From assembly GCA_964623635.1 (NCBI GenBank), contig CAZUUA010000002.1, positions 17,585 to 81,584 of the forward strand: a stretch of 64,000 nucleotides of DNA, read 5' to 3'. How positions within the stretch are numbered: position 1 is the first letter of the stretch; each line of letters begins with the position of its first letter. The notes beneath the pieces were generated by a model. That model made no database searches and was not told the DNA's origin. It saw only the letters and a list, made by a program, of their open reading frames with translations. This DNA is from an uncultured Ruminococcus sp. GTDB taxonomy: Bacteria > Bacillota > Clostridia > Oscillospirales > CAG-272. The translations under genes were made by a program, and so were the position numbers. This document shows, piece after piece, positions 5,608-34,427 of this stretch.

Positions 5608-6279
5608 ATGTTCAAATTATTGGTCGTTGAGGACGATCGGGAACTCAACCAAACACTGTGTGCCTTTTTGCGCCGCAACGGATACGACGCCATCGGCTGC
5701 CTGAATGCCAACGAAGCCTACGACGCTTTGTACGAGCATACCATCGACTTGATCATCTCCGATATCATGATGCCCGGCACCGACGGCTTTGCCTTCGCCG
5801 AAGCGGTTCGAGAGACCAACAAAACCATTCCCATGCTGTTCCTGACCGCCAGAGACGACTTGGACGCCAAAAAGCGTGGCTTCGCATTGGGCGTGGACGA
5901 TTATATGACCAAGCCGGTGGTGCTGGAAGAGCTGCTACTCCACATCGGTGCGCTGCTGAGACGAGCCGGAATCATGGCAAGCCGACGCCTCACCATCGGT
6001 TCCTTCACCATGGACGCCGACGAACATACCGCCACGCTGGGAGAACGTGAGATCCCATTGACCAGCCGGGAGTTCTCCATCCTCTATAAGCTCCTGAGCT
6101 ACCCCAAACGCACCTTCACCCGCACCCAGCTCATGGAAGAATTCTGGGAAGCCGACACCGAGACCGCACCCCGTGCCGTGGATGTGTACATGACCAAGCT
6201 CCGGGCTAAGCTTGTTGACTGCGAAGAATTTGAGATTAAAACCGTACACGGTCTGGGCTATAAGGCGGTGTGCAAATGA
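5608..6279 (+). CDS. OmpR/PhoB-family response regulator
   Basis: 223 aa. Receiver domain (LLVVEDD ... DLIISDIMMPGTDG ... LTA ... K) plus a winged-helix C-terminus (LTSREFSILYKLL ... VDVYMTKLRAKL ... TVHGLGY). Confidence 0.9.
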   Translation: MFKLLVVEDDRELNQTLCAFLRRNGYDAIGCLNANEAYDALYEHTIDLIISDIMMPGTDGFAFAEAVRETNKTIPMLFLTARDDLDAKKRGFALGVDDYMTKPVVLEELLLHIGALLRRAGIMASRRLTIGSFTMDADEHTATLGEREIPLTSREFSILYKLLSYPKRTFTRTQLMEEFWEADTETAPRAVDVYMTKLRAKLVDCEEFEIKTVHGLGYKAVCK

Positions 6280-7355
6280 ACGCCAAAAAACCGGGCTTCC
6301 GGCGCCGCTTTGCCATCAGTGTCTATCGCTGCCTGCTGTTCTTCTGCTTGGTCGCTTTCGTCACATCCTGCTGTATGCTTCTGTTTCTGAATATTTTAAT
6401 GGACGGCATCGACCTGACCCTAACCCCGGAAAACCTCAATATGGCCGCCAAGCTGACCTTTGGCAACGTGGTGCTGCTGGGCATCCTGTTCACCCTCATC
6501 GATAGCCTCCGCCGCCGACTGACCGTGGAGCGTCCCGTGAAGCGCATCGTGGCCGGTGCCGAAAAGATCATGCAGGGGGACTTCTCCGTGCGCATCGATA
6601 GGAACCTGCAGGACGACACCTTTGGGGAGATCATCGACTGCTTCAACCGTATGGCAGAGGAGCTGTCCGGCGTGGAGACCCTGCGCACCGACTTTATCGC
6701 CAACGTGTCCCACGAAATGAAGACCCCGCTGGCCCTGCTCCAAAACTACGGCACCCTGCTGCAGGACCCGTCTCTCACCGAGGCAGAACGCATGACCTAT
6801 GCCCAAGGCGTCCGAGACGGTGCCAGACGGCTGTCCGATATGATGACGAATATTCTCAAACTCAATCGATTGGAGAACCAGCAAATCTATCCCAAAACGG
6901 AACGGTTCGAGCTGGGCGAACAGCTTTGCGAATGCCTGCTGGTCTACGAATCCACTTGGGAAAACGCCAACATCGAGCCCGTCACCGACATGGAGGAGGA
7001 CGTGTTTGTGGAAGCCGACCGGTCGCTTTTGTCTCTGGTTTGGAACAATTTGTTCTCCAATGCATTCAAGTTCACGCCGCCGGAGGGCACAGTCACCGTA
7101 CGCCTCACGACCGAGGGCGAATACGCCGTGGTGCAGGTGCAGGATACCGGCTGTGGGATGTCCGCCGAGGTGGGTGCGCACATCTTTGAGAAATTCTACC
7201 AAGGGGACTCGTCTCGTGCCACACAGGGCAACGGTCTGGGTCTGGCGTTGGTAAAACGTGTGGTGGACATTCTCCATGGAGAAATATCCGTAGAAAGTAC
7301 CGTTGGCGTAGGCTCCACCTTTACCGTGCGCATTCGGAGGAAAAATGATGGGTAA
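6276..7355 (+). CDS. Sensor histidine kinase (2 TM, HAMP, HisKA, HATPase_c)
   Basis: H-box FIANVSHEMKTPL, N-box WNNLFSNAFKF, G-boxes DTGCGM and GNGLGLAL. ATG 6276 overlaps the regulator stop (ATGA); the track start is GTG 6270. Confidence 0.9.
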   Translation: MNAKKPGFRRRFAISVYRCLLFFCLVAFVTSCCMLLFLNILMDGIDLTLTPENLNMAAKLTFGNVVLLGILFTLIDSLRRRLTVERPVKRIVAGAEKIMQGDFSVRIDRNLQDDTFGEIIDCFNRMAEELSGVETLRTDFIANVSHEMKTPLALLQNYGTLLQDPSLTEAERMTYAQGVRDGARRLSDMMTNILKLNRLENQQIYPKTERFELGEQLCECLLVYESTWENANIEPVTDMEEDVFVEADRSLLSLVWNNLFSNAFKFTPPEGTVTVRLTTEGEYAVVQVQDTGCGMSAEVGAHIFEKFYQGDSSRATQGNGLGLALVKRVVDILHGEISVESTVGVGSTFTVRIRRKNDG

Positions 7356-8825: not shown

Positions 8826-9701
8826 TTAGCGAACGGCAAACTTCTTAACGCCCAGAGCGCACAGAGCCATAGCAGCAAACAGAGCAGCTACAGTGTAGTC
8901 GCCGGTAGCAGGAGCGGTAGCCTGTTCAGCAGTTGCAGCAGCGGCGGCTTCGGCGGCAGCAGCTTCGGCAGCAGCAGCTTCAGCGGCAGCCTGTTCAGCA
9001 GCGATCAGCTCAGCCACAGTGGTGTCGGACAGCTCGCACTGACCATATACGGAGGAGTCACCGGAAGCCTTATCGGCAAAGTCAGACCAACCCAGACATA
9101 CGTTACGGTCGCCCTTGCCTTCAGCGTCGTCGTTGTACTGGAAGTCGATACCGATGTAGTTGCCGCCGGAAACAGCGGAGATATCAAATTCCACTTCGTA
9201 GATCAGGGTGTCGCCATTCCGGGAGAAGCCGGCTTCGTTGTCGTGACCGTTGGTAGCACCGTCAGCGAACCATCTCTGCTGGGTTCTGGGAGCGGATGCA
9301 TCTACGGCCTCGTTGTCCATCTGGATGAACAGCTCAACGGAGTCACGCAGCCAGTCGCTGTCGCCAACCATGCTGACAGTCTTGTCTTCTACAACGTACA
9401 GCACATACAGGGTGGAGTCGCCGTCCCACAGAACCTTACAGGTCAGGGTAGCGTAGTCTTCACCGGCAACCTTGCTGGCATCGCCGAACCAGCTGGATGC
9501 GTTTTCTTTCACAACGTCAACGGGGATCTCGGGAGCATATGCCCAAGCGTCGTCGATCTGACCGTCTACGTTGATGTCGGCCACATATGCGGTGCAGGTC
9601 TTTTTGCCGTCTACAGCAGGAGCAGCGGAAATGGCAGTGGCCATAGCTGTTACCGTCATCAGAGCAGCCATGCCCAGAGCAAGGATCTTTGTCTTTTTCA
9701 T
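8826..9701 (-). CDS. Secreted CBM9-like/DOMON-like carbohydrate-binding protein with Ala/Glu linker and C-terminal sorting-like anchor
   Basis: Track ORF 8826..9734. ATG 9701 has AAGGAGAA upstream and gives a signal peptide MKKTKILALGMAALMTVTAMATAISA. VDGQIDDAWAYAP is the CBM9-type opening motif (from memory). The C-terminus reads ...AAEAAAAEAAAAEAAAAATAEQATAPATGD + 17 hydrophobic residues + KKFAVR. Confidence 0.7.
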   Translation of the reverse strand: MKKTKILALGMAALMTVTAMATAISAAPAVDGKKTCTAYVADINVDGQIDDAWAYAPEIPVDVVKENASSWFGDASKVAGEDYATLTCKVLWDGDSTLYVLYVVEDKTVSMVGDSDWLRDSVELFIQMDNEAVDASAPRTQQRWFADGATNGHDNEAGFSRNGDTLIYEVEFDISAVSGGNYIGIDFQYNDDAEGKGDRNVCLGWSDFADKASGDSSVYGQCELSDTTVAELIAAEQAAAEAAAAEAAAAEAAAAATAEQATAPATGDYTVAALFAAMALCALGVKKFAVR

Positions 9702-9867
9702 GGTAATTCTCCTTGTGAAAAAATAAAAAATCATACATGGAGTCGATCCTTATTGTAGCAGATTGCCGCCTTTCGAATGTTAACAAAAAGTATACAGAAA
9801 GTAAAATTTTATGCATCCTGTCGCTTTGGAGAACAGAAAAATCGATTTGGAATTTCGGCACGGCGTC

Positions 9868-12668: not shown

Positions 12669-12708
12669 TTTCGAAAACTTTCGGGAATGTTTCGAAAACT
12701 TTCGGGAA
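12669..12708. repeat. Two tandem 19-nt direct repeats with 21-bp period (TTTCGAAAACTTTCGGGAA) upstream of the transport locus
   Basis: Exact copies at 12669-12687 and 12690-12708. Each contains the imperfect dyad GAAA-AC-TTTC. Confidence 0.85.
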
Positions 12709-12766
12709 CTTTCCCCGTGTTCCTGTCGTCATAAGGCGCAAAACCAAACGATTGCGAAGTTGTAAC

Positions 12767-13720
12767 ATGAAACAAAAAAAGAACATATCTTCTGCGGAGC
12801 AGGACGCTCCAAGCACCGTCCCAACAAGCCCCAAACGAAAACGCCGCCGGTTCTGGAACCGAGAACGGCAGGAGCGTGTCTTCACCATGCCCTTCATGCT
12901 GCTGAGCATCCTTGGCGTGCTGACCTTCTACATACTCCCGTTTGTGGTGGTGATCTATTATTCTCTTATCAACAACAATACCGAAGCAAGCTTTGCCGGA
13001 CTGCAGAACTTCATCGATCTGTTCCAGAACAACGCCTTCAAGCTGGCGCTGAAAAACACCGGCATCTTTTCCTTGACCGCCGTGCCCTTTGCGGTGCTGC
13101 TGTCCCTGGGACTGGCGGTGCTGCTGGAGCAAAAGCTGCCGGGCAAAAGCGTGTTCCGTACCATATTTCTCTCACCCATGATCGTGCCGGCCGCTTCCAT
13201 CATCCTGATCTGGCAGGTACTGTTCGACTACAACGGCGTGCTCAACGACATCACGGCCCTGTTCGGCATCGCTCCCATCGAATGGATGAAGTCGGAGCAG
13301 GGGTACATCGTGGTGGTGCTGCTGTTTCTGTGGAAGAACATCGGTTACAATATGATCATGTTCATGTCCGCTCTGGCCGCCGTACCCAGAGATATCCAAG
13401 AGGTCGCCATGCTGGACGGCTGTGGACCGGTCAAGCGGTTTTTCCTGATCAAGCTGCGGTACCTGGCATCCACCATTTCCTACGTGACCATCATGTCCCT
13501 GATCAATTCCTTCAAGGTGTTCCGAGAGGTGTACCTGCTCACCGGGGATTATCCGTACGACTCCATGTATATGCTACAGCATTTCATGAACAATACATTC
13601 CGTGGATTTAATTATCAAAAGCTGTCCAGTGCCGCCGTGGTGCTGTCGCTGATCATGGTCGTCATCATAGCGATCCTGCTGTGGGCTGACGACAGGCTTG
13701 GGAGGGATATCGAAGAATGA
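12767..13720 (+). CDS. ABC importer permease, MalF/CUT1-like (BPD_transp_1)
   Basis: Track ORF 12752 (TTG); ATG 12767 is preferred. 6 TM. EAA loop IQEVAMLDGCGPVKRFFLIKL. Confidence 0.85.
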   Translation: MKQKKNISSAEQDAPSTVPTSPKRKRRRFWNRERQERVFTMPFMLLSILGVLTFYILPFVVVIYYSLINNNTEASFAGLQNFIDLFQNNAFKLALKNTGIFSLTAVPFAVLLSLGLAVLLEQKLPGKSVFRTIFLSPMIVPAASIILIWQVLFDYNGVLNDITALFGIAPIEWMKSEQGYIVVVLLFLWKNIGYNMIMFMSALAAVPRDIQEVAMLDGCGPVKRFFLIKLRYLASTISYVTIMSLINSFKVFREVYLLTGDYPYDSMYMLQHFMNNTFRGFNYQKLSSAAVVLSLIMVVIIAILLWADDRLGRDIEE

Positions 13721-14673
13721 CAGACGCAAAACTGAATATCCCCACGCAGGCAATATCGAAGCCGAAAAGGAAAAAGCGGATCACCTTCCGCCGGGTGCTG
13801 TTTCTCATCTGCGCCATGGCGGTGCTGCTGTTGTTCGCCTACCTGTTCCTGTTTCCCACCGTGTTCACCGTGACCAATTCCTTTATGTCCACCACGGAGA
13901 TCAGCGCCAACTACGGCAAGATCTTTTCCGGACTGGGTGCGGCCGGAGACGGTGGTCGAGTGTACATCGGCGAACGGGTGAACCTGCAGCTGATCCCGGA
14001 CAAAGTCAGCTTCAGCCAGTACAGCACGGTGCTACTGAAAAGCCCGGAATACCTGCTGAAATTCTGGAACTCCGTGTTCTACGTGCTGCCCATCGTGATC
14101 TTCCAGCTGGTGGTGGCATCCGGCGTGTCCTATGCCTTTGCCAGAGTGGAGACGAAATTTCGTTCCATCGTATTTTTTGTATATATTATATTGATGCTCA
14201 TGCCCTATCAGGTGACGCTGGTGCCCAACTACATTGTGGACAGCACGCTGGGCATCCTGAACACCCGCTGGGCCATCATCCTACCGGGGATCTTCTCACC
14301 GTTTTCCGTGTTCATCCTGACCAAATATATGCGCCGGATCCCCAAAGCCATGGTGGAAGCGGCACAGCTGGACGGCTGCGGTGAGTGGCAGATCTTCACG
14401 AAAATATTTATGCCCCTGTGCCGAGCGACGCTGTATTCGGTGGCGATTTTGGTGTTCATCGACTACTGGAACATGGTGGAGCAGCCGCTGATCCTCTTGA
14501 ACGATGCGGAGATGTATCCCCTGTCCGTGTTCCTGTCCAAGATCAACCAAGGGGACACCGGCATAGCCCTTGCCATAGCGGTGATCTATATGGTGCCGCC
14601 GGTGCTGCTGTTTTTGTACAGCGAAGACTACCTGATCGACGGGATCTCCTATTCCGCATCGGTCAAAGGATAA
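13717..14673 (+). CDS. ABC importer permease, MalG/CUT1-like (BPD_transp_1)
   Basis: 318 aa. The start overlaps the previous stop (ATGA), with RBS GGGAGGGA. EAA loop MVEAAQLDGCGEWQIFTKIFMP. Confidence 0.85.
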   Translation: MTDAKLNIPTQAISKPKRKKRITFRRVLFLICAMAVLLLFAYLFLFPTVFTVTNSFMSTTEISANYGKIFSGLGAAGDGGRVYIGERVNLQLIPDKVSFSQYSTVLLKSPEYLLKFWNSVFYVLPIVIFQLVVASGVSYAFARVETKFRSIVFFVYIILMLMPYQVTLVPNYIVDSTLGILNTRWAIILPGIFSPFSVFILTKYMRRIPKAMVEAAQLDGCGEWQIFTKIFMPLCRATLYSVAILVFIDYWNMVEQPLILLNDAEMYPLSVFLSKINQGDTGIALAIAVIYMVPPVLLFLYSEDYLIDGISYSASVKG

Positions 14674-14722
14674 AGCATAACAAAACGATAGAATAGCCAA
14701 ATAACGGAGGTCAATACATAGC

Positions 14723-17035
14723 ATGGAAGCCAAGAACCGCAGAGCATGGATCAAGAATGTTGCCATCATTTTTCTCACCGTCCTGCTGCTGCTCACCTTT
14801 TTCTCCAACACGATTCTGAACTATTCACTGCCGGAGGTATCGGCACAATATGCCCGGTACGATTCCATCAGCGGTGCGATCAAGGCAAACGGCACCGTCA
14901 AGGCAAACGAGAGCTATGTGGTGACCTACGACGAAGCCGAAGAAGGCAGCGAGGTGACCACACCCGGTCAGACCCGCAAGGTGGTATCGGTGTACGTGAA
15001 GCAGGGCAGTGAGGTGGCCATCGGCGACCCCATTTTGGCTCTGGAAGGTGGTTCCAGCGAGGAACTGAAAACGGCTGAAGAAAACCTGAAGAACGCCGAA
15101 AAGGAGCTCCGTGAGCTGGAAAAGGAATATGCACTGGCACAGCTGACGGACACCATCAACGATCTGGAGTCCGACAAATCCAAGAGTGAAAACCAAAGCA
15201 AGCTTGCCAAATCCAAGGCAGAGCTGGCAGAACTGCAGGAGCTGTATGCGGCACTGCTGGCCGGTACCGATCCGACCGAAACCTTGAAGGCCCAGAAGAA
15301 GGTAGCCCAAAAGGAAGCCGACAATATCCAGAAGCAGATCGATGCCATCAACGAAAAGATTACGGAAACAAAGAACAAGATCAGCGCAGCGAAAGGGAAT
15401 ATCGAGGAGGACTACACCTCGGGCAAGACCCTGACCGAACGGCAGAATGAAGCCAAGCAGAGGTACGATACATTGAAAGCGGAATACGATACCTTGACGA
15501 CACAAGTGGATACGTTGGAGGAACAGTATGAAAATGCATCCAGTTTGTCGGGCGATGTATCGAAGGCATATGAGATCAGTAAGGAGATTCATACGCTGAC
15601 GGAGACATTGAATGATAAGCAAAAGGAACTGAGCAGACTGCTGGAAGATAATATTATTTCTGAATACAACGAAAAACAATCTGCTTACGATGCTGCTGAA
15701 GCTGCGAAAAGTGCCTATGAGAAGCAGAATGGTTCCTCTGGAGAAGAATGGGCATACTATGACGCACAGGTAAAAGTCGCTCAAAGAGAATTGGAAGAAG
15801 CACAAAAAAAGTATGATGAATTGATTGCGAATGGGAAATATGCATTTTTAGACGACTATAGAACGGAAGAAGACCTGCGCGAAGAAATTGCCAATCTGCA
15901 ATATCAAATTGCTGAAAATTATGCCAAACTGGAGATCCTCGGCATATCCTACATCGATAACCTGACCGACTACACTGTGGATACCAACACCACCAAGCTG
16001 AAGGAAGAACTGGACAAAGCCCAGAAGAAGCTGACCGAACTGACCACCGAATACGAAGAAGCCCAAAAGACCTACGAATCCCTGACCAAACAGGTGAACA
16101 GCACCGGCGTGATCACGGAAAACGAAGCACTACTGACCGTCTTTGAGGCCGATCTGGAAACCTACAAGGAAAAGCTGGAAGAAGCCAACGAAAAGATCGA
16201 CGATCTGGAAAAACAGATCACCGACAGCGCATCCACCAAAAAGCCGGAGGAAGTCAAAGAACAGATCGATACCCTGACCTCCTCCATCCAGACGCTGGAA
16301 CTGCAAATGCAGATCGACGCCGCCACCGAAAAGAAATCCGATGCAGAAGCGGTCTATTCCAGAGAAGACGACGAAAAAGCCATTGCCGATAAAAAAGCCG
16401 ATATCGAAGAACTCAAAACCAAAATCAAAGCCATGCAGGACTCCCCCACCGAAACCATCGTCACCGCTCCCATCGCCGGTAAGATCGTGGAAGTGCATTT
16501 TGTCCCCGGCAATCCGGTCACCAGCGGCAACGAAGTGGCACGGATCGAAGTGGCAGACAAGGGCTACATCTGCGAAATCTCCATGTCCACCGAGGAAGCC
16601 CGGAAGATCCAGGTGGGCGCAGAGTGCTCCGTCACCAATTCCTGGTGGTACTCCGACCTGACCGCCACCGTTTCCCAGATTCGCAGCGATCCCCAGAGCC
16701 AAGGCAAAAACCGCATCGTGGTCATCGAGGTCAAAGGAGACGTGTACGAGGGACAAAGCCTGTCCTTCTCCATCGGTGACAAGAGCCAGTCCTACGACAG
16801 CGTCCTGCCCAACAGCGCCATCCGGGAAGACAGCGAAGGCAAATTCGTGTTGGTGGTGGAATCCAAGAATACACCTCTGTCCGTGCGCTATACCGCCAGA
16901 AGAATGAACATCGAGGTCATTGCCTCCGACGACACCAAGTCCGCTGTGTCCGGTCTGTACGGCAGCGAATTCGTCATCACCAGCGCCACCTCTCCCATCA
17001 GCGACGGTCAGCAGGTGCGACTGGCAGAGAATTGA
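14723..17035 (+). CDS. HlyD-family membrane-fusion/periplasmic adaptor protein with a ~470-aa coiled-coil insert
   Basis: 770 aa. N-terminal TM (VAIIFLTVLLLLTFF). Lipoyl half-motifs TRKVVSVYVKQGSEVAIGDPILALEGG and IVTAPIAGKIVEVHFVPGNPVTSGNEVARIE, then a beta-barrel C-terminus. The region between the half-motifs is E/K/L/A/Q-rich and heptad-like. Confidence 0.75.
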   Translation: MEAKNRRAWIKNVAIIFLTVLLLLTFFSNTILNYSLPEVSAQYARYDSISGAIKANGTVKANESYVVTYDEAEEGSEVTTPGQTRKVVSVYVKQGSEVAIGDPILALEGGSSEELKTAEENLKNAEKELRELEKEYALAQLTDTINDLESDKSKSENQSKLAKSKAELAELQELYAALLAGTDPTETLKAQKKVAQKEADNIQKQIDAINEKITETKNKISAAKGNIEEDYTSGKTLTERQNEAKQRYDTLKAEYDTLTTQVDTLEEQYENASSLSGDVSKAYEISKEIHTLTETLNDKQKELSRLLEDNIISEYNEKQSAYDAAEAAKSAYEKQNGSSGEEWAYYDAQVKVAQRELEEAQKKYDELIANGKYAFLDDYRTEEDLREEIANLQYQIAENYAKLEILGISYIDNLTDYTVDTNTTKLKEELDKAQKKLTELTTEYEEAQKTYESLTKQVNSTGVITENEALLTVFEADLETYKEKLEEANEKIDDLEKQITDSASTKKPEEVKEQIDTLTSSIQTLELQMQIDAATEKKSDAEAVYSREDDEKAIADKKADIEELKTKIKAMQDSPTETIVTAPIAGKIVEVHFVPGNPVTSGNEVARIEVADKGYICEISMSTEEARKIQVGAECSVTNSWWYSDLTATVSQIRSDPQSQGKNRIVVIEVKGDVYEGQSLSFSIGDKSQSYDSVLPNSAIREDSEGKFVLVVESKNTPLSVRYTARRMNIEVIASDDTKSAVSGLYGSEFVITSATSPISDGQQVRLAEN

Positions 17036-17047
17036 GGTTGACCGATC

Positions 17048-18154
17048 ATGAAGCTCCATACAAAAGGACTGCGCTTCTCCGGCATCAGTGGGATCCTGTG
17101 CGTCCTGTTTGCCCTGCTGTTCCTGCTGGGTGAAGGGATCGCCGCTATCCTGACCGGGGACATCGACGCCCTGGACGCCGGAAAACGTTGGTCGGCAGCC
17201 GGGGAACCCTATGCCACCCTGACCCTGCACACCGATACGGAAAGCGCATTGTCTCGCAACCAGATCGAAAGCTATGCCCATTCCATCGATACGGCGCTGC
17301 TGAACGAGTCCATCGATTCTCCCGAAAACGGCAACGCCTGGGCCTACTGCTACTTCACCGAGGATGTGATCTCCGTCACCGGTCCCAAAGCCACCGCCTC
17401 TCTCACGACCATGGCAACCGGCGGCAGCTTCTACACCTTCCATCCCCTGGAATTCCGCTACGGCGCACCCTACGTGTTCGATAAATCCTTGCCCGATGGG
17501 GTGGTGCTGGACGAGAACGCAGCTTGGCGTATCTTTGGCGCCGTGGACGTGGTGGGTATGACCGTGGAGATCGGCGGCAGAGAAATGACCGTCACCGGCA
17601 TCGTGAAAAAGGAACGGGACAGCGCCGGCTACGAAAAGGCATACGGCGAAATCCCACGGGTGTACATGAGCTACTACGGCTACGAAAACATTTATGGGGA
17701 AGAGAATAACATCACCACCTTTGAGGTGACCCTGCCCAATCCGGTGAAAGCCTTTGCGAAAAACATCTTTGAGACCGCCGTGTCCGTGAACGAAGACCAT
17801 ATGATGCTCCGGGAAAATTCCAACCGGTATTCCATCGTCAACCGCTTCAACCGCATGAAGGAACTGCCCTACATGGGTATGCGCAGCGACCGCATCGTCT
17901 ATCCCTATTTCGAGAACGAACTACAGGTCATCGACTATACCACGTCCGTATGGATGATCGCACAAACCATCGCCGGTGCCTGTGCCGTTTTGACCCTGCT
18001 TGCCGCCATCATTGCCCTGTTCGCCAGCGGCTTCTCCTTCTCCGGGGTAGCAAAGCTGTGGTGGAAAAAGGCTGAGGCAGCTTGGGAAAAACGACACGCC
18101 GAAAAACGCCGGAAAAAGCGTGCCAAAAGAAAAAAGAATACGGCAGAATCGTAG
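17048..18154 (+). CDS. MacB/FtsX periplasmic-core-domain protein with only 2 TM helices and a polybasic tail (no FtsX domain)
   Basis: 368 aa. TM1 ISGILCVLFALLFLLG. The extracytoplasmic domain contains VVLDENAAWRIFGAVDVVGMTVEIGGREMTVTGIVKKE (MacB_PCD-like). One further TM (VWMIAQTIAGACAVLTLLAAIIALFASGF), then KLWWKKAEAAWEKRHAEKRRKKRAKRKKN. Confidence 0.6.
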   Translation: MKLHTKGLRFSGISGILCVLFALLFLLGEGIAAILTGDIDALDAGKRWSAAGEPYATLTLHTDTESALSRNQIESYAHSIDTALLNESIDSPENGNAWAYCYFTEDVISVTGPKATASLTTMATGGSFYTFHPLEFRYGAPYVFDKSLPDGVVLDENAAWRIFGAVDVVGMTVEIGGREMTVTGIVKKERDSAGYEKAYGEIPRVYMSYYGYENIYGEENNITTFEVTLPNPVKAFAKNIFETAVSVNEDHMMLRENSNRYSIVNRFNRMKELPYMGMRSDRIVYPYFENELQVIDYTTSVWMIAQTIAGACAVLTLLAAIIALFASGFSFSGVAKLWWKKAEAAWEKRHAEKRRKKRAKRKKNTAES

Positions 18155-18213
18155 GCAAAAACCACCATATTCGCATAATGAGAATATCTACATCAAAAAC
18201 GGGAGGAAACCAC

Positions 18214-20739
18214 ATGAAGAAAAAACGGATCATGACCCTGCTGCTCACGGCGGCGATGCTGCTGTCCGCAGGTGCTGCAACAAGCTGCGGCAAAAAGAAC
18301 ACAGGCCCGGTGAAGTCCAAACGTACCAACGTGTACAGCAGCACACCCCTGGAGCTACCGGAGGACATCACGTACATCCGAAATATGACCTGTACAAATG
18401 ATACGATCTACATAATGTACACCAAGCAGGTCGAAGTCAAGCACTACAACGATGGCACCGAGGAAGAAGCGAATGCCGGGCAAGAGCCGGGTTTGGCACC
18501 AGCGATAGCCGAAGCGGCAGGGGTAGAGGTACCAGAAACGGAAGTCGAAGTGGTCGAGGAAATCATGGAAGTCACGGAAAACGATATGGATATTGCCATA
18601 GAAGAATCCGTGTATGAAGAAACCGAGGACTACTACATCGAATACGTTTCGCAGACATGGCTGTACAGCACGGATCTGACTGGGGAGAACAAAACGCTCA
18701 TTCAGTTCCAGAAGCCGTTCGAGGGCGACAGAGGCTATATGCGCCAGATCCTCAGCGGAGATGGACAGCTCTATGCCATGTACGATACCTGGGGTGAGAC
18801 GGATGGCTATTGGCTGTATCGGATCGATCCGGTGGATGGCAGCGTAACGAAGCAGTACGACCTGTCCACCGCAAAGGAAGCACTGGGTCTGACGGAAGAC
18901 GACTATTTCTACGTCAACAGTCTGGCATTGTCCGGCAACACCGCATACATCAACTATGACGCCAAGATCGTCCCCTATGACCTGCAAAGCGAGACCTTCG
19001 GCAAAGCCATCGATCTGTCGGATAAAATCAGTTGGACCAGTGCCCTGTACGCCATGGACGACAGCCTCTACTATGCAGGCTATATCGATGGTAAGGGTCA
19101 GACCTTCTTTTCCGTTGATCTGGCAACGGGAGAATCCACCGAAGTGGAGATCGAAGGGATCACCTATTACTCTCCCATCGGCGACCACGACGGCAAGATA
19201 TACTTTACGAAAAACGATGGTATCCTTGCCTACGATACCGTAACCGGCACCAGCAGCGAAGTCATCAACTACATCAACTGCGACATCAACCCCACCGAAG
19301 TCAATACCGTAGTTCTGACGGACGATGGCAGAATGGCATATTATTCCAGCTCCTGGGACAACAAAACGGAGAAAAACACCAATACCCTACAGGTGCTCGA
19401 TCGGATCCCCGATGAACAAATGCAGGAGGAAGTGCTGCTGACCATCGCCAGTGCCTACTACAACTACGAACTGCAGAATGTGGTGATCGGCTTTAATCGG
19501 CAGAACACCGGTGTGCGCCTGAATATCAAGGATTACAACGAATACAGCACCGCCGAAAACAATTATGAAGGTGCCATCACCCAGCTCAATGCAGACATCA
19601 CCATGGGCAACGTGCCCGATCTTCTGGTACTGGACAGCGAGCTGCCGGTGGAGAGCTACTTCAGCAAGGGTGTGTTTGTGGATCTGTATCCCTACATGGA
19701 CAGCGAGGAAAACGGCATCGATCGTTCCCAGTATCTGGAAAACGTCTTCAAGGCCTGTGAACAGAACGGCAAGCTGTATTCCCTGATCACTTCTTTCAAC
19801 CTTGCCACGCTGTCTGCCAAGCCCGAATACGTGGGTGACACGTCCGGCTGGACCATGACGCAGATGTTGGATGCCATCGAAGCCATGCCGGATGGTATGC
19901 GTGCCTTCAGCGATTTCGGACGAGACGACCTGCTGGATCGGCTGTTCTTCTATTGCGGCGACATCTTCATCGACTGGGAGACCGGCACCACCAATTTTGA
20001 ATCCGAGGATTTTATTCGCCTGATCGAATTTTTGAAGACCTGCCCGGAAAAATCCGTCATGGATGCCTACTATGACACCATAGATTACGACAACTACGAT
20101 TACAAGGAAGAGGAAGCATTCTACAACAACTACGAAATGCGGTACTATAAGGATACGGCACTGTTTGGATGCAGCAATATCTATCGCCTGAATGGGTACA
20201 CCGATATCCATAACACCTTCGCAGGAGATGCGACCATGATCGGCTATCCCACAAACGATGGCGGCAACGGTGCGGTGATCCTGCCCAACCTGGAGATCGG
20301 CATTTGTGCTTCCTCCGTGAACAGGGACAGCGCATGGGTCTTCCTGAAGTATCTGCTGACGAGCGAGGACTATTTTGAATCCACATACTCCTTCACCGTT
20401 GCCAAGAAGTGGCTGGACAAGAGCCTGGCAGAATCCGAGGAATACTACCAGGATTGGTACGGCGGCTACACGGAAGAAGACTTAAACTATATGCGTGAGC
20501 AGTTCAGCGAAGAATACGTAGAGTATATGCAGAAAGCCAATGAGAAGTATACCATAGAGCAAGGACAGAAGACCTACGATCTGGTCACCGGTGCTACTAA
20601 GGTCGTTCGGACAAACAGCGATCTCATGACCATCATCAAGGAAGAGCTCAGCTCCTTCTTTGGCGGTGGCAAATCGGCCGAGGAAGCTGCCCGGATCATC
20701 AACAGCCGTGCCAGAGTGTACGTAGCAGAGAATAGCTGA
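18214..20739 (+). CDS. Lipoprotein: N-terminal repeated-blade (beta-propeller-like) domain fused to a family-1 extracellular solute-binding domain
   Basis: Track ORF 18082..20739. ATG 18214 has GGGAGGAAA upstream. Signal peptide + lipobox LLSAGAATSC. Recurrent (L/I)Y(Y/F/A)... D..tG blades, then an SBP-like C-terminal half (VLLTIASAYYNY ... VPDLLVLDS ... KLYSLITSFN). Confidence 0.7.
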   Translation: MKKKRIMTLLLTAAMLLSAGAATSCGKKNTGPVKSKRTNVYSSTPLELPEDITYIRNMTCTNDTIYIMYTKQVEVKHYNDGTEEEANAGQEPGLAPAIAEAAGVEVPETEVEVVEEIMEVTENDMDIAIEESVYEETEDYYIEYVSQTWLYSTDLTGENKTLIQFQKPFEGDRGYMRQILSGDGQLYAMYDTWGETDGYWLYRIDPVDGSVTKQYDLSTAKEALGLTEDDYFYVNSLALSGNTAYINYDAKIVPYDLQSETFGKAIDLSDKISWTSALYAMDDSLYYAGYIDGKGQTFFSVDLATGESTEVEIEGITYYSPIGDHDGKIYFTKNDGILAYDTVTGTSSEVINYINCDINPTEVNTVVLTDDGRMAYYSSSWDNKTEKNTNTLQVLDRIPDEQMQEEVLLTIASAYYNYELQNVVIGFNRQNTGVRLNIKDYNEYSTAENNYEGAITQLNADITMGNVPDLLVLDSELPVESYFSKGVFVDLYPYMDSEENGIDRSQYLENVFKACEQNGKLYSLITSFNLATLSAKPEYVGDTSGWTMTQMLDAIEAMPDGMRAFSDFGRDDLLDRLFFYCGDIFIDWETGTTNFESEDFIRLIEFLKTCPEKSVMDAYYDTIDYDNYDYKEEEAFYNNYEMRYYKDTALFGCSNIYRLNGYTDIHNTFAGDATMIGYPTNDGGNGAVILPNLEIGICASSVNRDSAWVFLKYLLTSEDYFESTYSFTVAKKWLDKSLAESEEYYQDWYGGYTEEDLNYMREQFSEEYVEYMQKANEKYTIEQGQKTYDLVTGATKVVRTNSDLMTIIKEELSSFFGGGKSAEEAARIINSRARVYVAENS

Positions 20740-20819
20740 TCATTGAAACCCAAGTAAGATCCTGACCAGCCATACTTATGAGCGACCCATATTTTACAGA
20801 AAGCGGAGGGATACTACAA

Positions 20820-23264
20820 ATGAAGAAACGACAGATCCTATCTATGCTTTTGGCATCGACCATGCTGCTTGCCACCGGCTGTGACGAAGAGGCGATCACA
20901 ACGGCAGTGTTGGAGAACCTGGAATCGGCATTGGTGAGTGGTCCTGGCACAGACGGTGAAGAAACAGACCAGTCGGCGAACGATGGCTCTACAGATGTGG
21001 CAAAGGCCGACCCGGTTACAACCGATCCGGTTACAACCGATCCGGTTACAACCGAGCCGGTGAAGTCCAAGCGTACCAATGTATACCAAAGCATACCCAT
21101 TGCGCTGCCGGACGAGATCGGCGAAGGCACCGGCTATGTCCAGGATATGGTCAGCATTGGCGATAGGATCTATATGGAGTACGTGCAGCAGAACGATGAT
21201 GCATCGGAAACATGGCTGTACAGCACCGACGTGACCGGGGAGAACCAAACCTTCGTGCCGTTCCAAGATCCGTTGGAGGGCAGCGGTTACATGACCAAGC
21301 TGTACACCACAGATGAGAAGCTCTATGCCCTGTACGAGACCTGGTATGACAACAATGTCTACTGGCTCATGGAACTGGATCCCACAGACGGCAGCGTGAC
21401 AAAGCAGTACGATCTGAACGTGGCAAAGGACGCACTGGGTCTGACCGATGAAGACAGCTTCTATGTCGTCGATGTGGCACTGTCCGGACACACGGTCTAC
21501 CTCAACAGATACACCGAGCTGATCCCCTATGACCTGCAAACGGAGACCTGTGGGGATGTCATCGAGTTGCCGGAGAACATTATGGGGTTTGCCAGCACCT
21601 ATGGCACAGACGAGGGCATATACTTCACGGCCTATAACGAACAATATGAACAGAACTTCTATATTCTCGATCCGGCAACCGGAACAGCCACGCCGACCTG
21701 GATCGGTGACCCCGGTTATTTCGCTCCCATCGGGATGTGTGACGGGCTACTCTACTTCAACACCTACGATGCCGTTTTGACCTACGATTTCGAACATGGT
21801 CATGTGGGCGAGGTCCTGGATTTCCGCAACTGCGACATTCATCCGAACGAGGTCACGTATATGGTGATCACCGCTGACGGCACATTGGTATATTTTACCA
21901 GTTTGGACGATGGCAGAATATCCAGGATCGGCGGTAAGCTACAGACACTGGAACGCATCCCCGATGATCAATTGCCGGAGGAAGTGCTGTTGACCATCGC
22001 CACGACCTACTACGATTATAGCTTAGAGGATGCTGTGCTGCGCTACAACCGGCAGACTGACGGCGTACACATTGCCATCCAGGATTACAGCTATATGGCA
22101 GACGGCGAGCACGATGCTGCGTATTGGATCTGCAAAAACATCATCGATGGCGAAGCACCGGATCTGGTGCTGCTGGATCGGTATACGCCCGTGGAGAGAT
22201 ACTACAAAAATGGTCTGCTGGTGGATCTGTATCCGTACATGGACGGTGCAGAAAACGGCATCGATCGTTCTCAATATTTCGAAAACATCTTCAAGGCCTG
22301 TGAACGGGACGGCAAGCTGTACGCACTGATCACCAACTACAGCTTGGAGACCATGGCAGCCAAGTCCGCTTATGTGGGTTCTGATGCCGGTTGGTCTTTG
22401 TCGGAAATGTTAGACACCATCGAAGCCATGCCGGATGGTATGCGTGCCTTCAGTGGTTACGGACGAGACGATCTTTTGGCGCAGCTCATGCAGTATTGCG
22501 GCGAGCTCTTTATCGATTGGGAACGCAGTACCACCAACTTTGCCTCCGAGGACTTCCTGCGGCTGCTCACATTCCTGAAGACCTATCCGGAAAAGTCCGT
22601 CCTGAATGCCTACTATGAGGACGCCGCCCCGGATACCGGAACAAACTTCATGCGTGAATACGATATGCGGTTCTACAAGGATACGGCACTGCTGGAAACC
22701 GCATACATCTATGAAGTGCGTGGATATTGGGATCTCTTTAGAACCTTTGCGGAGAACCCCACCGTGATCGGCTATCCGACAAACGAAAGCAGTGGTACGA
22801 TCGTCCGTCCGACATTGGAGCTGGGTATCGGTGCTACCTCCGTGAACAAGGACAGCGCATGGGATTTCCTGCGGTATCTGCTGACATCGGAGGACGATCT
22901 GGAGATATACGAGAGCTTTCTTCCCATCTCCAAAGCACGGTTCGAAAAGCTGGTGGACGGCTCTGAAGCGTACTATGCTGGTTGGTACACCTATTCGGAA
23001 GACGAGTATGACTATATGCGCCAAGAGTACGGCGAGGAATACGTCACCTACCACCGTCAGGCCAATCAGCCCTATACCAAAGAGATGGGGCAAAAGGTCT
23101 ACGATCTGGCTGCCGGTGCCACCAAGGTCACACGGATGACCGACGGTATCATTGCCATCATCCAGGAAGAGGCAAGTGCCTACTTCTCCGACAGTCAAAC
23201 GGTCGAAGAAGCTGTAAAGTGCATAGACGACCGTGTATGCGCTTACATGGATGATCACAAATAA
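20820..23264 (+). CDS. Paralogous lipoprotein: linker with DPVTT repeats + repeated-blade domain + solute-binding domain
   Basis: Track ORF 20778..23264. ATG 20820 has GGAGGGA upstream. Lipobox MLLATGC. Collinear with the preceding gene throughout (for example PVKSKRTNVYQSIPIALPDEI versus PVKSKRTNVYSSTPLELPEDI; DLYPYMDGAENGIDRSQYFENIFKACE versus DLYPYMDSEENGIDRSQYLENVFKACE). Confidence 0.7.
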   Translation: MKKRQILSMLLASTMLLATGCDEEAITTAVLENLESALVSGPGTDGEETDQSANDGSTDVAKADPVTTDPVTTDPVTTEPVKSKRTNVYQSIPIALPDEIGEGTGYVQDMVSIGDRIYMEYVQQNDDASETWLYSTDVTGENQTFVPFQDPLEGSGYMTKLYTTDEKLYALYETWYDNNVYWLMELDPTDGSVTKQYDLNVAKDALGLTDEDSFYVVDVALSGHTVYLNRYTELIPYDLQTETCGDVIELPENIMGFASTYGTDEGIYFTAYNEQYEQNFYILDPATGTATPTWIGDPGYFAPIGMCDGLLYFNTYDAVLTYDFEHGHVGEVLDFRNCDIHPNEVTYMVITADGTLVYFTSLDDGRISRIGGKLQTLERIPDDQLPEEVLLTIATTYYDYSLEDAVLRYNRQTDGVHIAIQDYSYMADGEHDAAYWICKNIIDGEAPDLVLLDRYTPVERYYKNGLLVDLYPYMDGAENGIDRSQYFENIFKACERDGKLYALITNYSLETMAAKSAYVGSDAGWSLSEMLDTIEAMPDGMRAFSGYGRDDLLAQLMQYCGELFIDWERSTTNFASEDFLRLLTFLKTYPEKSVLNAYYEDAAPDTGTNFMREYDMRFYKDTALLETAYIYEVRGYWDLFRTFAENPTVIGYPTNESSGTIVRPTLELGIGATSVNKDSAWDFLRYLLTSEDDLEIYESFLPISKARFEKLVDGSEAYYAGWYTYSEDEYDYMRQEYGEEYVTYHRQANQPYTKEMGQKVYDLAAGATKVTRMTDGIIAIIQEEASAYFSDSQTVEEAVKCIDDRVCAYMDDHK
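21009..21068 (+). repeat. In-frame 15-bp tandem repeat (3 good units plus 1 degenerate) encoding DPVTT-DPVTT-DPVTT-EPV
   Basis: GACCCGGTTACAACC GATCCGGTTACAACC GATCCGGTTACAACC GAGCCGGTGAAGTCC, inside the second lipoprotein gene. Confidence 0.9.
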
Positions 23265-23351
23265 TACAAGCAAAAAATGAGTCGAGAACGACAGTATCGC
23301 TTTCGGCTCATTTGCTGATTAAAAAAACTACAAACAAGAGAGGTTGACCCT

Positions 23352-23951
23352 ATGAAAAAAGCACTCCTCAACGGCATTGCCGCCGGTTTCATGATCGGGA
23401 TCGGTGCCGCCGTATTCCTGTCCTGCGAGAACAAGATCGTAGGTGCGGTACTATTTGCCGTAGCCCTGACGGTGATCTGTCAACTGGACATGATGCTGTT
23501 CACCGGCAAGATCGGCTACATCGTGAACGCCCACACCAAAAACGACATCCTTGCTACCGTGTTCTGTCTCCTTGGCAACGCCATTGGTACGCTTATCTCC
23601 GGCTTGGCCATCGGCTATTGTCGTCCCGCACTGCCGGAGGTAGCCGTGACCATGACCAACAATAAGCTGTCCCAACCGCTGCCCATGGTGCTGGTGTCTG
23701 CCATTTTCTGCGGCATTCTTATGTACAGCGCCGTGGCCATCTTCAAAGAGAAGGGTTCCATGGCCGGTATCATCTACTGCGTACCGGTGTTCATTCTGTC
23801 CGGCTTCGAGCACTCCATTGCCGATATGGCGTATTTCTGGGTGGCAACGAACGGCGGACTGCAGGCGGTGTTGTTCATCCTGGTGGTGATCCTTGGCAAC
23901 TCCATCGGTGGCTGTCTGATCCCGGCATTGAAAAAGTTAGCAGGGAACTGA
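23352..23951 (+). CDS. Formate/nitrite transporter (FNT) family protein, compact form
   Basis: 199 aa, about 6 TM. LFTGK (the L-F-T-G loop) and SGFEHSIADMAYF (FNT signature F-E-H-S-I-A-N-M). RBS AGAGAGGT. Confidence 0.75.
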   Translation: MKKALLNGIAAGFMIGIGAAVFLSCENKIVGAVLFAVALTVICQLDMMLFTGKIGYIVNAHTKNDILATVFCLLGNAIGTLISGLAIGYCRPALPEVAVTMTNNKLSQPLPMVLVSAIFCGILMYSAVAIFKEKGSMAGIIYCVPVFILSGFEHSIADMAYFWVATNGGLQAVLFILVVILGNSIGGCLIPALKKLAGN

Positions 23952-23964
23952 TCCCATGAAACAG

Positions 23965-23996
23965 AAAAAACGGTAGGTCAATAGCCTACCGTTTTT
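23965..23996. terminator. Bidirectional rho-independent terminator
   Basis: AAAAAA CGGTAGG tcaatag CCTACCG TTTTT, between convergent genes. Confidence 0.7.
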
Positions 23997-28540: not shown

Positions 28541-30652
28541 ATGGAATTTTGCTGTGGTACAGGTCTGCATCGACCGGTACGTCTGTCGGAGGAGACCAGA
28601 GCCTTTGCCTGGCGTTCCCTCCATGGAACCTATGGGGACGATGCCATGACCCATCTGGACATTCCCATGGACAACATACACGGCTTCCGGGAGCTGGACG
28701 CCGACGAACAATATTCCCTCTGCATCGACGCCATCGCCAGACAGGCGCCACTGCGGCTCATCGACGGAGAAAAGCTGTGCGGTGCTGCCACCTTGGGTAG
28801 AGCCATCGCACACCAGATCCCCGTCACCTACGGAGGAGAGATGGTCATGCCTTCGGTGAGTCACCTGACCCTGGATTTTGCTACGGTGCTGCGGATCGGA
28901 CTGAACGGCATTCAAAAGCAGGTGGAGCAAAACTGCCCCTATCCGCTGCGGAAATACCTGCTGCGTACCCTGCACGCCTTCCGCATCTGGCACAACCGGT
29001 ATCGCATCGCCGAACAGGAGCACGACCCGGCGCTTGCCAATATGCTGTCGCACGTACCCTTTGGCGTGCCCACGTCCTTCCACGAAGCGGTACTGAGCCT
29101 GTGGTTCACCTTTGCCTTTGTACGGCTGTGCGGCAACTGGCCCGGTATCGGACGGATCGACCAGATGCTGGAACCGTTCCTGCAGGCAGACCTGGCAAGC
29201 GGCAAGATCACGCTGGACGAAGCACGGGAGATTTTGGCGCACTTTTTCATCAAGGGCTGCGAATGGATCCGGAAAGATCCCCCCATCACCACCGGTGACG
29301 CACAGCATTACCAGAATCTGGTTTTAGCCGGTACCAATGAAAACGGCATAGACGTGACGGGGAACGTGACCCATCTGATCCTGGACGTGATCGAGGAGCT
29401 GCCTATCGGCGACTTTCCCATTACGGTGCGGCTGCACGAGAAAAGCGACCCCAAGCTGATCCGGCGTGTGGCAGAGGTGATCCGGTATGGCGGCGGCGTG
29501 CTGGCTGTCTACAACGAACCGCTGATCCTGCGTGCCCTGACCTCGGTGGGCTACGATCCAAAGGAAGCCCGCAACTTTGCCAACGACGGCTGCTGGGAGG
29601 TGCAGATCCCCGGCAAAACCGATTTCATCTACCTCCCCTTCGACAGCTATACCATGCTCATGCGGGACGTGCTGGGCGTTGGCGGCGAACACCGGGACTT
29701 CGATAGCTGGGATGCCATTCTAGATGCGTTTCTGGAAAGACTCCGCCAGCACGTGGACGGTACCTTTGCAGCGCTGTGTGACGGGTTGCTGACTAAGGAC
29801 GAAAACGGCACCTGGCAGTGGAAACGGTACGGCGGCCCGGCACACGTAATCTCCCTGCTGGAAGGTGGCTGTATCGATAGCGGCAGAGAATATTACCATG
29901 GTGGTACAAAATATGTGGTGCGTTCCCCCCATATCGGCGGCGCACCCGATACAGGCAATAGCCTGTACGCCATTCGCAAGCTGGTGTACGAAGACCATTT
30001 GGTGACCCTGCCGGAGCTGCTGGACATTCTGGAAAACGACTGGGAAGGTCACGAACCCCTGCGGCAGATCGCCATGAATCGATACACCTATTACGGAAAT
30101 GACAACGCCGAAGCCGATGCCGTGACCGCCATGATCTTAGACAGCTTTGCCGATATGGTGCTGACCCACGCCACCGAAACGCCGCTATTGTATATCCCCG
30201 GCGTATCCACCTTTGGCAGACAGATCGATTGGCTGGAACAGCGCACCGCAGCTCCCTTTGGCGCCAAGAAAAACACGATTTTGGCAGGGAACTGCTCCCC
30301 CACACCGGGCACCGATCTGGAAGGCGCCACCGCCATCATCCGCTCCTATTGCAGTGCCGATATGGAAAAGCAGGTCAACGGCGCCGCACTGGATGTGAAG
30401 CTGCATCCTACCGCTGTGCAAGGCGAAAACGGTCTGACAGCATTGGAAGCACTGCTGACCAGCTTTGTGGAATTGGGCGGCTACTTCCTGCAGGTGGACG
30501 TGATCGACGCCGCAGTGCTCCGGGAAGCACAAAAGAATCCGGAGGCCTACAAAACCCTGTCCGTGCGTGTATCCGGCTGGAATGCCCGGTTCATCACCCT
30601 GCAGCCCAATTGGCAGGAAATGATCATCCAGCGCACCGCCACCGGGATATAA
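28541..30652 (+). CDS. Glycyl-radical enzyme, PFL2/dehydratase-lyase-like, short form (703 aa)
   Basis: Glycyl-radical fingerprint SVRVSGWNA (Gly679) near the C-terminus. Cys loop FANDGCWEV (Cys351, Cys-x-Glu). Other GRE blocks: FHEAVLSLWF, GRIDQ, YQNLVLAG, GGGVLAVYNEP, NCSPTPGTDLEGATA, LDVKLHP. RBS AAAGGAG. Confidence 0.85.
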   Translation: MEFCCGTGLHRPVRLSEETRAFAWRSLHGTYGDDAMTHLDIPMDNIHGFRELDADEQYSLCIDAIARQAPLRLIDGEKLCGAATLGRAIAHQIPVTYGGEMVMPSVSHLTLDFATVLRIGLNGIQKQVEQNCPYPLRKYLLRTLHAFRIWHNRYRIAEQEHDPALANMLSHVPFGVPTSFHEAVLSLWFTFAFVRLCGNWPGIGRIDQMLEPFLQADLASGKITLDEAREILAHFFIKGCEWIRKDPPITTGDAQHYQNLVLAGTNENGIDVTGNVTHLILDVIEELPIGDFPITVRLHEKSDPKLIRRVAEVIRYGGGVLAVYNEPLILRALTSVGYDPKEARNFANDGCWEVQIPGKTDFIYLPFDSYTMLMRDVLGVGGEHRDFDSWDAILDAFLERLRQHVDGTFAALCDGLLTKDENGTWQWKRYGGPAHVISLLEGGCIDSGREYYHGGTKYVVRSPHIGGAPDTGNSLYAIRKLVYEDHLVTLPELLDILENDWEGHEPLRQIAMNRYTYYGNDNAEADAVTAMILDSFADMVLTHATETPLLYIPGVSTFGRQIDWLEQRTAAPFGAKKNTILAGNCSPTPGTDLEGATAIIRSYCSADMEKQVNGAALDVKLHPTAVQGENGLTALEALLTSFVELGGYFLQVDVIDAAVLREAQKNPEAYKTLSVRVSGWNARFITLQPNWQEMIIQRTATGI

Positions 30653-34367: not shown

Positions 34368-34427
34368 GCGACACCGCTTTTCTGCGATACAATTTTGAGA
34401 AAATTCCTATGCCAAAGGAGTATATAC

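Follow-up and report, generated by a model that had tools for sequence, protein, structure and literature searches.

The 64-kb stretch of DNA under study (hereafter the window, whose own numbering supplies all coordinates), from an uncultured Ruminococcus sp., carries a six-gene locus in which the membrane channel and receptors of a carbohydrate importer are encoded together with two components of the kind that build tripartite exporters. Genes 1 and 2 specify permeases of an ATP-binding cassette (ABC) importer of the CUT1 type, gene 3 a membrane-fusion protein (MFP) with a long alpha-helical hairpin, gene 4 a MacB-type periplasmic core domain (PCD) held between two transmembrane (TM) helices, and genes 5 and 6 large lipoproteins that join a beta-propeller-like domain to a sugar-binding domain. 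On balance we lean toward viewing the six products as one dedicated envelope machine, namely, a CUT1-type importer with two obligatory accessory subunits of tripartite-exporter architecture. At the level of sequence, a near-invariant TM helix in the MFP and natural fusions of the PCD to binding proteins point to a single physical complex, and throughout the genomes compared the MFP and PCD genes travel with the permease genes.

Recurrence of the module and its importer core

Synteny was examined in the 80 best loci, against whose open reading frames (ORFs) the six window proteins were compared by BLAST. In every locus long enough to be informative, as well as in metagenome loci, the order gene 1, gene 2, MFP, PCD is found on one strand, with one to three binding-protein paralogues of 750-900 aa after gene 4 and/or before gene 1. 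The MFP and PCD genes always accompany permease and binding-protein genes in the informative loci, and no MFP/PCD pair without permeases was found in any locus of sufficient length among the 80. This arrangement persists at 24-31% PCD identity and amid unrelated flanks (L005, L086, L087). Because the order recurs in every informative locus while the flanking genes differ, the juxtaposition is not accidental, and the neighborhood search thereby sustains the proposal of the initial annotation that the genes constitute a linked unit rather than a chance neighborhood.

The module is also widespread. A scan of one genome per species found PCD relatives in at least 523 genomes, and the carriers include Oscillospiraceae, 'Ruminococcus' metagenome-assembled genomes, Acetatifactor (including the cultured A. 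muris DSM 23669), other Lachnospiraceae, and Christensenellales; rumen and gut metagenomes contain it in abundance. Two randomly picked homologues of gene 2 (84-86% identity) both lie in complete modules, and the top 120 gene 2 matches are all at least 79% identical, a range within which the boundary of the module is not reached.

Sequence evidence strongly supports the assignment of genes 1 and 2 to a type-I importer channel of the CUT1/MalFG kind, as first proposed. Both give the expected match to BPD_transp_1 (50.4 and 50.8 bits, respectively, for a Pfam cut-off of 26.4), and the EAA-loop strings were confirmed in both translations. The nearest NCBIfam models are UgpA/MalF for gene 1 and GlcU/UgpE/MalG for gene 2, and the closest solved relatives in the Protein Data Bank (PDB) are SugA/MalF/AlgM1 and AlgM2/SugB/MalG, respectively (E = 1e-19 to 1e-10). 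Across the 80 loci, gene 2 is the most conserved protein of the module, at 61-98% identity, and gene 1 ranges from 49 to 95%.

Permeases of the SugA/MalF/AlgM1 and AlgM2/SugB/MalG types all work with MalK-type ATPases, and shared, unlinked ATPases of the MsmX/MsiK type are a known situation in Gram-positive bacteria. Scans of the 64-kb window in six frames for Walker A and signature motifs yielded no MalK/MsmX- or MacB-type ATPase; its ABC ATPases are limited to two minus-strand exporters (45299-48959) with a fused ABC_membrane domain (Pfam), in agreement with the view that no suitable ATPase nearby had been overlooked. In four related loci (L041, L047, L070, L071), the gene directly after the PCD gene contains the Walker A motif GPSGCGKST and the combination of ABC_tran, OB_MalK, and TOBE_2 domains that marks the MalK/MsmX type (Pfam). 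Where an ATPase is in the cluster, its type is thus MalK and not MacB, LolD, or FtsE. Because a MalK-type ATPase adjoins the PCD gene in these four loci, the module is read as a CUT1-type importer whose ATPase is usually unlinked, which also bears out the suggestion that an unlinked MsmX-type subunit explains the missing gene; that a MalK/MsmX-type ATPase, generally encoded elsewhere in the genome, energizes the channel is strongly supported by these relatives and probable for the organism of the window.

The lipoproteins encoded by genes 5 and 6 are well supported as tethered receptors in which a beta-propeller is joined to a MalE-like sugar-binding domain. Gene 5 possesses a signal peptide and Cys25; gene 6 has a lipobox, LLATGC, followed by a Thr/Pro-rich tether (residues ~40-95, with DPVTT three times) and then by the propeller and binding domain. 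In gene 5 the propeller-like domain is placed at residues ~35-400 and the binding domain at ~405-840; in the structural model (pLDDT 84.7), the beta-rich N-domain spans residues 41-413, and the C-terminal half matches CbpC (7x0o) and many MalE-like sugar-binding proteins with E down to 3.5e-16. Profile matches to SBP_bac_1 are weak for the window proteins themselves (gene 6, E = 0.028; gene 5, none) and are obtained for 18 of 30 family members (Pfam), and NCBIfam has no match for genes 5 and 6. The identity of the binding proteins is nonetheless clear, since homologues match SBP_bac_1 and the structure model matches MalE-like proteins. Of the initial description of two paralogous ~830-aa lipoproteins with repeat and solute-binding domains, the paralogy stands, at 50% identity between genes 5 and 6, and the solute-binding assignment stands by way of homologues and model, its Pfam signal in the window proteins being weak.

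The N-domain had been expected to resemble DUF5050; it is instead propeller-like, with a profile that matches designed and PQQ-type beta-propellers over multiple repeat stretches (E = 7.5e-7 to 1e-4) and a weak match to SGL in 7 of 30 family members (Pfam). Within the gene 5 propeller, residues 90-133 (window 18481-18612) form an acidic, disordered insert with pLDDT below 50. At L090:13820-16317, two ORFs, one of 405 aa for the propeller part and one of 427 aa for the binding domain, take the place of a single giant binding-protein gene, through either a real split or a frameshift.

Among characterized importers, MalFGK2-MalE, LpqY-SugABC, and AlgM1M2SS-AlgQ resemble the module in combining a pair of BPD_transp_1 permeases that bear EAA loops with a binding protein of the MalE fold and an OB/TOBE ATPase of the MalK type (here in-cluster in the four related loci), but have neither an MFP nor a PCD protein. 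Compared with MalFGK2-type systems, the binding proteins here are about twice the normal size by virtue of the N-terminal beta-propeller, and the ATPase is usually unlinked.

The exporter-type accessory pair

The identification of gene 3 as an MFP with an unusually long hairpin is upheld by several features. HlyD_3 matches residues 580-674 at 39.6 bits (Pfam cut-off 22.2), and another anticipated domain, Biotin_lipoyl_2, is sub-threshold (residues 86-108; 24.1 bits, cut-off 29.8). The NCBIfam model TIGR01730 (RND_mfp) aligns through positions 98-321 of its 322 with gene 3 residues 544-767 (E = 5e-16, below the family cut-off). The protein is ordered as an N-terminal TM helix (residues 13-31; the sole one by hydropathy), a split lipoyl domain, the alpha-hairpin (~112-573), the HlyD_3 beta-barrel, and a membrane-proximal domain. 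Residues 112-573 hold only two prolines, and the heptad periodicity of this region is 0.80, versus 0.27 +/- 0.06 in 200 shuffles. Proline and glycine breaks pair symmetrically about residues 342-346, at i + j ~684-692 (P184/P508, G225-234/G462, and G277/G407), which places the hairpin tip at about residues 336-346 (NGSSGEE, 336-342). Arms of ~228 residues would extend up to ~34 nm if straight, at 1.5 Å per residue. The whole of gene 3 found no match at E <= 0.01 among PDB sequences.

Conservation within the MFP is uneven. The hairpin region measures 461 residues in the window and 151-663 (median 330) among the MFP genes of L006-L085, and the TM, beta-barrel, and membrane-proximal parts stay conserved despite this more than fourfold change in length. 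Across 67 distinct homologues, almost no change is seen in the N-terminal stretch RRxWVKNxAIIFLxxxLLLTFFSNTIxNYSLPEV, against an overall identity of only 32-45% and a hairpin conservation of ~0.47. In A. muris DSM 23669 (L049:8047-9955), the MFP gene appears as two ORFs of 439 and 206 aa, possibly through a frameshift or sequencing error. A reading as an anti-phage defense system was rejected, as PADLOC returned only weak, generic coiled-coil matches of the MFP to SMC-like models.

Gene 4 proved to be, as had been proposed, a MacB PCD with TM1 and TM2 alone. MacB_PCD matches at 34.2 bits (Pfam cut-off 27), there is no Pfam match to FtsX, and hydropathy reveals only two hydrophobic helices, in accord with the AlphaFold2 (AF2) model. 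In that model (pLDDT 88.5), TM1 leads into a beta-alpha-beta half of the Porter subdomain, the Sabre subdomain, the second Porter half, a long stalk helix that runs into TM2, and a basic cytoplasmic helix. The best structural matches in Foldseek are MacB (5gko, 5nik, 5lil), pneumococcal Spr0695 (5xu1), and the extracellular domain of YknZ (5f9q), each with probability 1.00 and with TM-scores on the target of 0.65-0.72 (0.72 for the YknZ domain); HrtB, LolC/E, and YbbP rank lower. The profile of the gene 4 family likewise finds the MacB PCD in the PDB (E = 3e-8), and NCBIfam gives just two matches, far below cut-off. The best-conserved stretch of the family, YPYFENE, lies just outside TM2.

A hidden FtsX half was sought by Pfam, hydropathy, the AF2 model, and inspection of the intergenic gaps, and none was found; the 59-nt gap between genes 4 and 5 contains no small gene. 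A word-indexed search returned 46 clusters of gene 4 homologues, 45 of which are 344-408 aa long with MacB_PCD as the sole precomputed Pfam match, the exception being a 283-aa match that covers 44% of the query. An exhaustive hidden Markov model (HMM) search gathered 630 clusters (50% identity) at E <= 1e-30, and an FtsX domain was absent from the ten longer family members checked. Because nearly all of these 630 clusters are 340-400 aa long, the PCD-only form is the norm of a sizeable family and not a truncation. Relatives of gene 4 are labeled 'ABC transporter permease' in databases; since the four-TM FtsX domain and the cognate ATPase are lacking, gene 4 should be filed neither under that name nor as a MacB-family transporter.

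These findings leave next to no room for the idea that the locus arose by accidental juxtaposition or preserves the decaying remnant of a MacAB/YknXYZ-type exporter beside a sugar importer. The absence of an FtsX domain and an ATPase from the window speaks for this idea, but hundreds of clusters of 340-400 aa have the same PCD-only architecture, with invariant residues, and the reading frames are intact and the structural models confident. The idea is also contradicted by the synteny, which is present in every informative locus.

Natural fusions further tie the PCD to the receptors. One PCD-giant binding protein fusion of 1089-1090 aa (P0138) occurs in three independent assemblies, and a second (P0148) is 1131 aa long; such fusions are topologically consistent. 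Separately, in L073:9890-11536 and in P0142, the PCD-only protein bears a C-terminal, cytoplasmic HAD-family hydrolase domain fused after TM2.

With the MacAB-TolC, Spr0693-0694-0695, and YknWXYZ pumps, the module shares an MFP composed of a TM anchor, lipoyl domain, hairpin, beta-barrel, and membrane-proximal domain, and a Porter-plus-Sabre PCD inserted between two TM helices. Unlike in those pumps, gene 4 ends after TM2, there is no FtsX TM3-TM4, coupling helix, or MacB-type ATPase, the membrane partners are importer permeases, and the hairpin region reaches ~460 residues. By way of scale, the traced alpha-barrel of Spr0693 is 56 Å high and the whole pump rises ~154 Å above the membrane (PMC5768738). 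In MacAB and the pneumococcal pump, the TM/cytoplasmic region of the adaptor is required for ATPase stimulation (PMC5985334). A further parallel is FtsEX with EnvC or PcsB, in which an extracytoplasmic domain of the MacB/FtsX superfamily is likewise paired with a long envelope coiled-coil protein. FtsX differs in that it spans the membrane four times, works with an ATPase of its own (FtsE), and lacks the Sabre subdomain. The partners EnvC and PcsB do not belong to the MFPs and bear domains of the hydrolase or LytM type, and neither binding proteins nor MalFG permeases take part in these systems.

No published description of an MFP or PCD protein with a binding-protein-dependent (CUT1) importer, or with propeller-binding proteins, was found in the full-text literature, the coverage of which is incomplete, such that an earlier description may exist. 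To that extent, the literature agrees with the initial annotation that no described system places importer TM domains and exporter-type adaptor parts in one operon.

Locus layout and a candidate envelope-linked promoter

All six plus-strand ORFs at 12767-23264 were confirmed by ORF listing and translation (Table 1). They are packed as one unit, as first described: genes 1 and 2 overlap by ATGA at 13717-13720, and the subsequent gaps of 49, 12, 59, and 80 nt are exact given the gene 6 start at ATG 20820, with the gene order conserved across loci. An earlier gene 6 ATG at 20778 has no ribosome-binding site, and 20820 was taken as the start; gene 1 opens as an ORF at TTG 12752, and its most likely start is the conserved ATG at 12767. 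Each of genes 2-6 is preceded by a GGAGG-like ribosome-binding site. The tight spacing, these sites, and a single conserved promoter-like element before gene 1 argue for a single predicted transcription unit encompassing genes 1-6.

Table 1. Features of the six-gene locus, in window coordinates
Feature	Position	Strand	Assignment
19-nt direct repeat	12669-12687 and 12690-12708	+	TTTCGAAAACTTTCGGGAA x2, perfect, spacing 21 nt
ECF-sigma-type promoter	12705-12730	+	GGAAC-N17-CGTC, ~37 nt before gene 1 ATG
Gene 1	12767-13720	+	MalF/SugA/UgpA-type ABC importer permease, 317 aa; EAA loop EVAMLDGCGPVKRFF
Gene 2	13717-14673	+	MalG/SugB/AlgM2-type ABC importer permease, 318 aa; EAA loop EAAQLDGCGEWQIF
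Gene 3	14723-17035	+	MFP, 770 aa
Gene 4	17048-18154	+	Two-TM MacB-type PCD protein, 368 aa
Gene 5	18214-20739	+	Lipoprotein, 841 aa: beta-propeller-like and MalE-like sugar-binding domains
Gene 6	20820-23264	+	Gene 5 paralogue, 814 aa
RNA hairpin after gene 6	23278-23313	+	

The element before gene 1 resembles promoters of extracytoplasmic function (ECF) sigma factors, a class typically marked by AAC at -35 and CGT at -10. When five loci are aligned, the spacer has diverged and neither GGAAC nor CGTCA varies. The transcription start is predicted near 12737-12741, shortly past the -10 CGTC. The strict motif lies no more than 300 nt before gene 1 in 22 loci, among them every one of L001-L027 that contains the region as well as the differently flanked L005, L065, and L069; examples of the form GGAAC-N16/17-CGTC are found at L001:5671-5695, L003:5288-5312, L005:5912-5936, and L007:5719-5744. 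With an added [TA]3, the motif has 33 matches in 1.43 Mb of loci versus ~3 expected by our own calculation, and its sole other match in the window lies inside a gene, at chance level. Expression in the clade of the window appears to require an ECF sigma factor, and the system would thereby be linked to an extracytoplasmic signal. A Pfam search of ten small ORFs of the window revealed no ECF sigma gene.

Position 12669, the first of the interval initially annotated, is not a gene start but the start of the direct repeat in the promoter region. This repeat, TTTCGAAAACTTTCGGGAA, overlaps the -35 element and is present as a single copy in close relatives; a recent duplication or an operator function may account for it. 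A divergent gene of ~425 aa is likewise preceded by the ECF-type motif on the minus strand in four loci (L003:2444-2469, L015:2435-2460, L011:2521-2546, and L035:2908-2933). In L003, L004, and L015 the divergent gene encodes a serpin, as does the gene at the same position in L089 and L090, which suggests that the transporter and serpin genes share a regulon.

At the 3' end of the locus, the hairpin after gene 6 folds strongly (-21.3 kcal/mol, z = -5.9), in line with its earlier description as terminator-like, but lacks a U-tract and was not called in a terminator scan; it may be a weak or partial terminator. The flanks are of a housekeeping character, with RimM, TrmD, an opposite-strand Amidase_3 gene, and a PP-loop ATPase upstream and a formate/nitrite-family (FNT) channel downstream. 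The FNT gene (23352-23951), separated from the operon by 87 nt, runs up to a good bidirectional terminator (23966-23996); it is also found 3' of the module in L001 and L002, and not in L003 or L005. Elsewhere in the window lie genes for a CBM9-domain protein (8826-9734, minus strand), a glycyl-radical (PFL-like) enzyme (28541-30652, plus), a GH116 beta-glucosidase-like enzyme (34395-36959, plus), and an OmpR-type response regulator with a histidine kinase (5608-7355, plus).

A working model and its implications

Because the single TM helix of the MFP is near-invariant, a specific intramembrane partner is likely. Among the other membrane components of the module, high conservation is confined to the permeases. 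In the mechanism that we propose, the MFP would oligomerize as MacA, YknX, and Spr0693 do, its beta-barrel and membrane-proximal domains would sit on the gene 4 PCD as MacA does on MacB, and its TM helix would pack against the conserved permease pair. Extending outward from the membrane across the cell wall, the hairpin would form a stalk or tube that captures, guides, or concentrates carbohydrate for the tethered receptors and the permease. As to the substrate, a larger oligo- or polysaccharide is the most plausible guess, and the assembly may act as a wall-spanning conduit or scaffold that delivers large glycans. Coupled import and export, which the initial annotation had offered as an alternative, finds no support: an exporter TM domain or exporter ATPase is never part of the module.

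A bolder version of this model is possible, and we advance it tentatively, as a speculation with more doubt than confidence behind it. It holds that the module is the first 'tripartite-like importer' of single-membrane bacteria, in which an MFP tube or stalk tens of nanometers long, seated on the stand-alone PCD and locked to the MalFG-type channel through its invariant TM helix, carries or guides carbohydrate chains inward through the wall to the propeller receptors. An architecture known from efflux would here serve uptake, and motions driven by the ATPase might be relayed to the PCD.

Several observations weigh against a dedicated uptake machine of this kind. No glycoside hydrolase or sugar regulator is consistently linked to the module in the examined loci, which is unusual for a polysaccharide-uptake locus; the neighboring glycoside hydrolases are inconsistent (a melibiase in L001 and L089, GH63-like and GH1 enzymes in L088), with housekeeping genes elsewhere. 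The three paired Pro/Gly discontinuities imply that the hairpin of gene 3 may bend and fall short of 34 nm, and the variation in hairpin length among loci fits adaptation to envelope thickness but fits weak constraint equally. The promoter motif was not found upstream of Lachnospiraceae-type clusters. Lastly, the TM helices of gene 4 are poorly conserved (0.37-0.41) and so give little clue to how the PCD would be coupled to permease or ATPase.

This poor conservation of the gene 4 helices also favors an alternative in which co-transcribed genes serve separate functions: an ordinary sugar importer would be built from the products of genes 1, 2, 5, and 6 and an ATPase encoded elsewhere, and the MFP-PCD pair would perform an independent envelope job (remodeling the wall or acting as a scaffold, as FtsX-EnvC/PcsB do, or shielding the membrane surface) while simply being co-regulated. 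We know of no mechanism that links a PCD to MalFG, the ECF-type promoter suggests regulation of the envelope-stress type, and an Amidase_3 gene is nearby in Oscillospiraceae loci. This amidase neighbor, however, is lost in L005, L086, and L087, while the linkage of the pair to the permeases remains strict across families and contexts, with no exception in the informative loci of the 80. Functional separation also sits poorly with the near-invariant MFP helix, which implies a conserved intramembrane partner where only the permeases are highly conserved, with the existence of PCD-binding-protein fusions, and with the location of the MalK-type ATPase gene right after the PCD gene and not after the permeases. 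We accordingly judge this alternative unlikely, while assigning it the greatest weight among those that divorce the pair from uptake.

Less probable still is an outward-acting, mechanotransmitting device. In it the binding proteins, once loaded with ligand, would serve as sensors that set off ATP hydrolysis by the MalK-type subunit, and this hydrolysis would drive the PCD and MFP to act beyond the membrane, for instance, to expel or extract a compound from the wall zone. PCDs and MFPs are otherwise known only from MacB-type systems that carry out such extracytoplasmic work (PMC5985334; PMC5768738). ECF-type regulation, with the same motif upstream of serpin genes, and the lack of linked catabolic genes would suit this device as well. 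It is weakened because the elements of MacB mechanotransmission, namely, TM3-TM4 with the coupling helix and the MacB-type nucleotide-binding ATPase, are absent; moreover, the type-I importer fold, the SBP_bac_1-type receptors, and the TOBE-bearing MalK are hallmarks of uptake.

In textbooks, MFPs and MacB-type periplasmic domains figure as components of efflux and secretion systems, and their role in Gram-positive bacteria is still debated. Their strict pairing with a binding-protein-dependent importer would broaden the roles assigned to both. We rate the module as a widespread, uncharacterized ABC importer with an unprecedented accessory pair. Curated families are at present lacking for the stand-alone PCD, the extended MFP, and the giant propeller-binding proteins, NCBIfam giving no match or only matches far below its cut-offs, and names for them would sharpen annotation in thousands of genomes. 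More broadly, the module would offer a testable model for the passage of nutrients across a thick cell wall, and it could define a new class of carbohydrate uptake in major fiber-degrading gut Clostridia.

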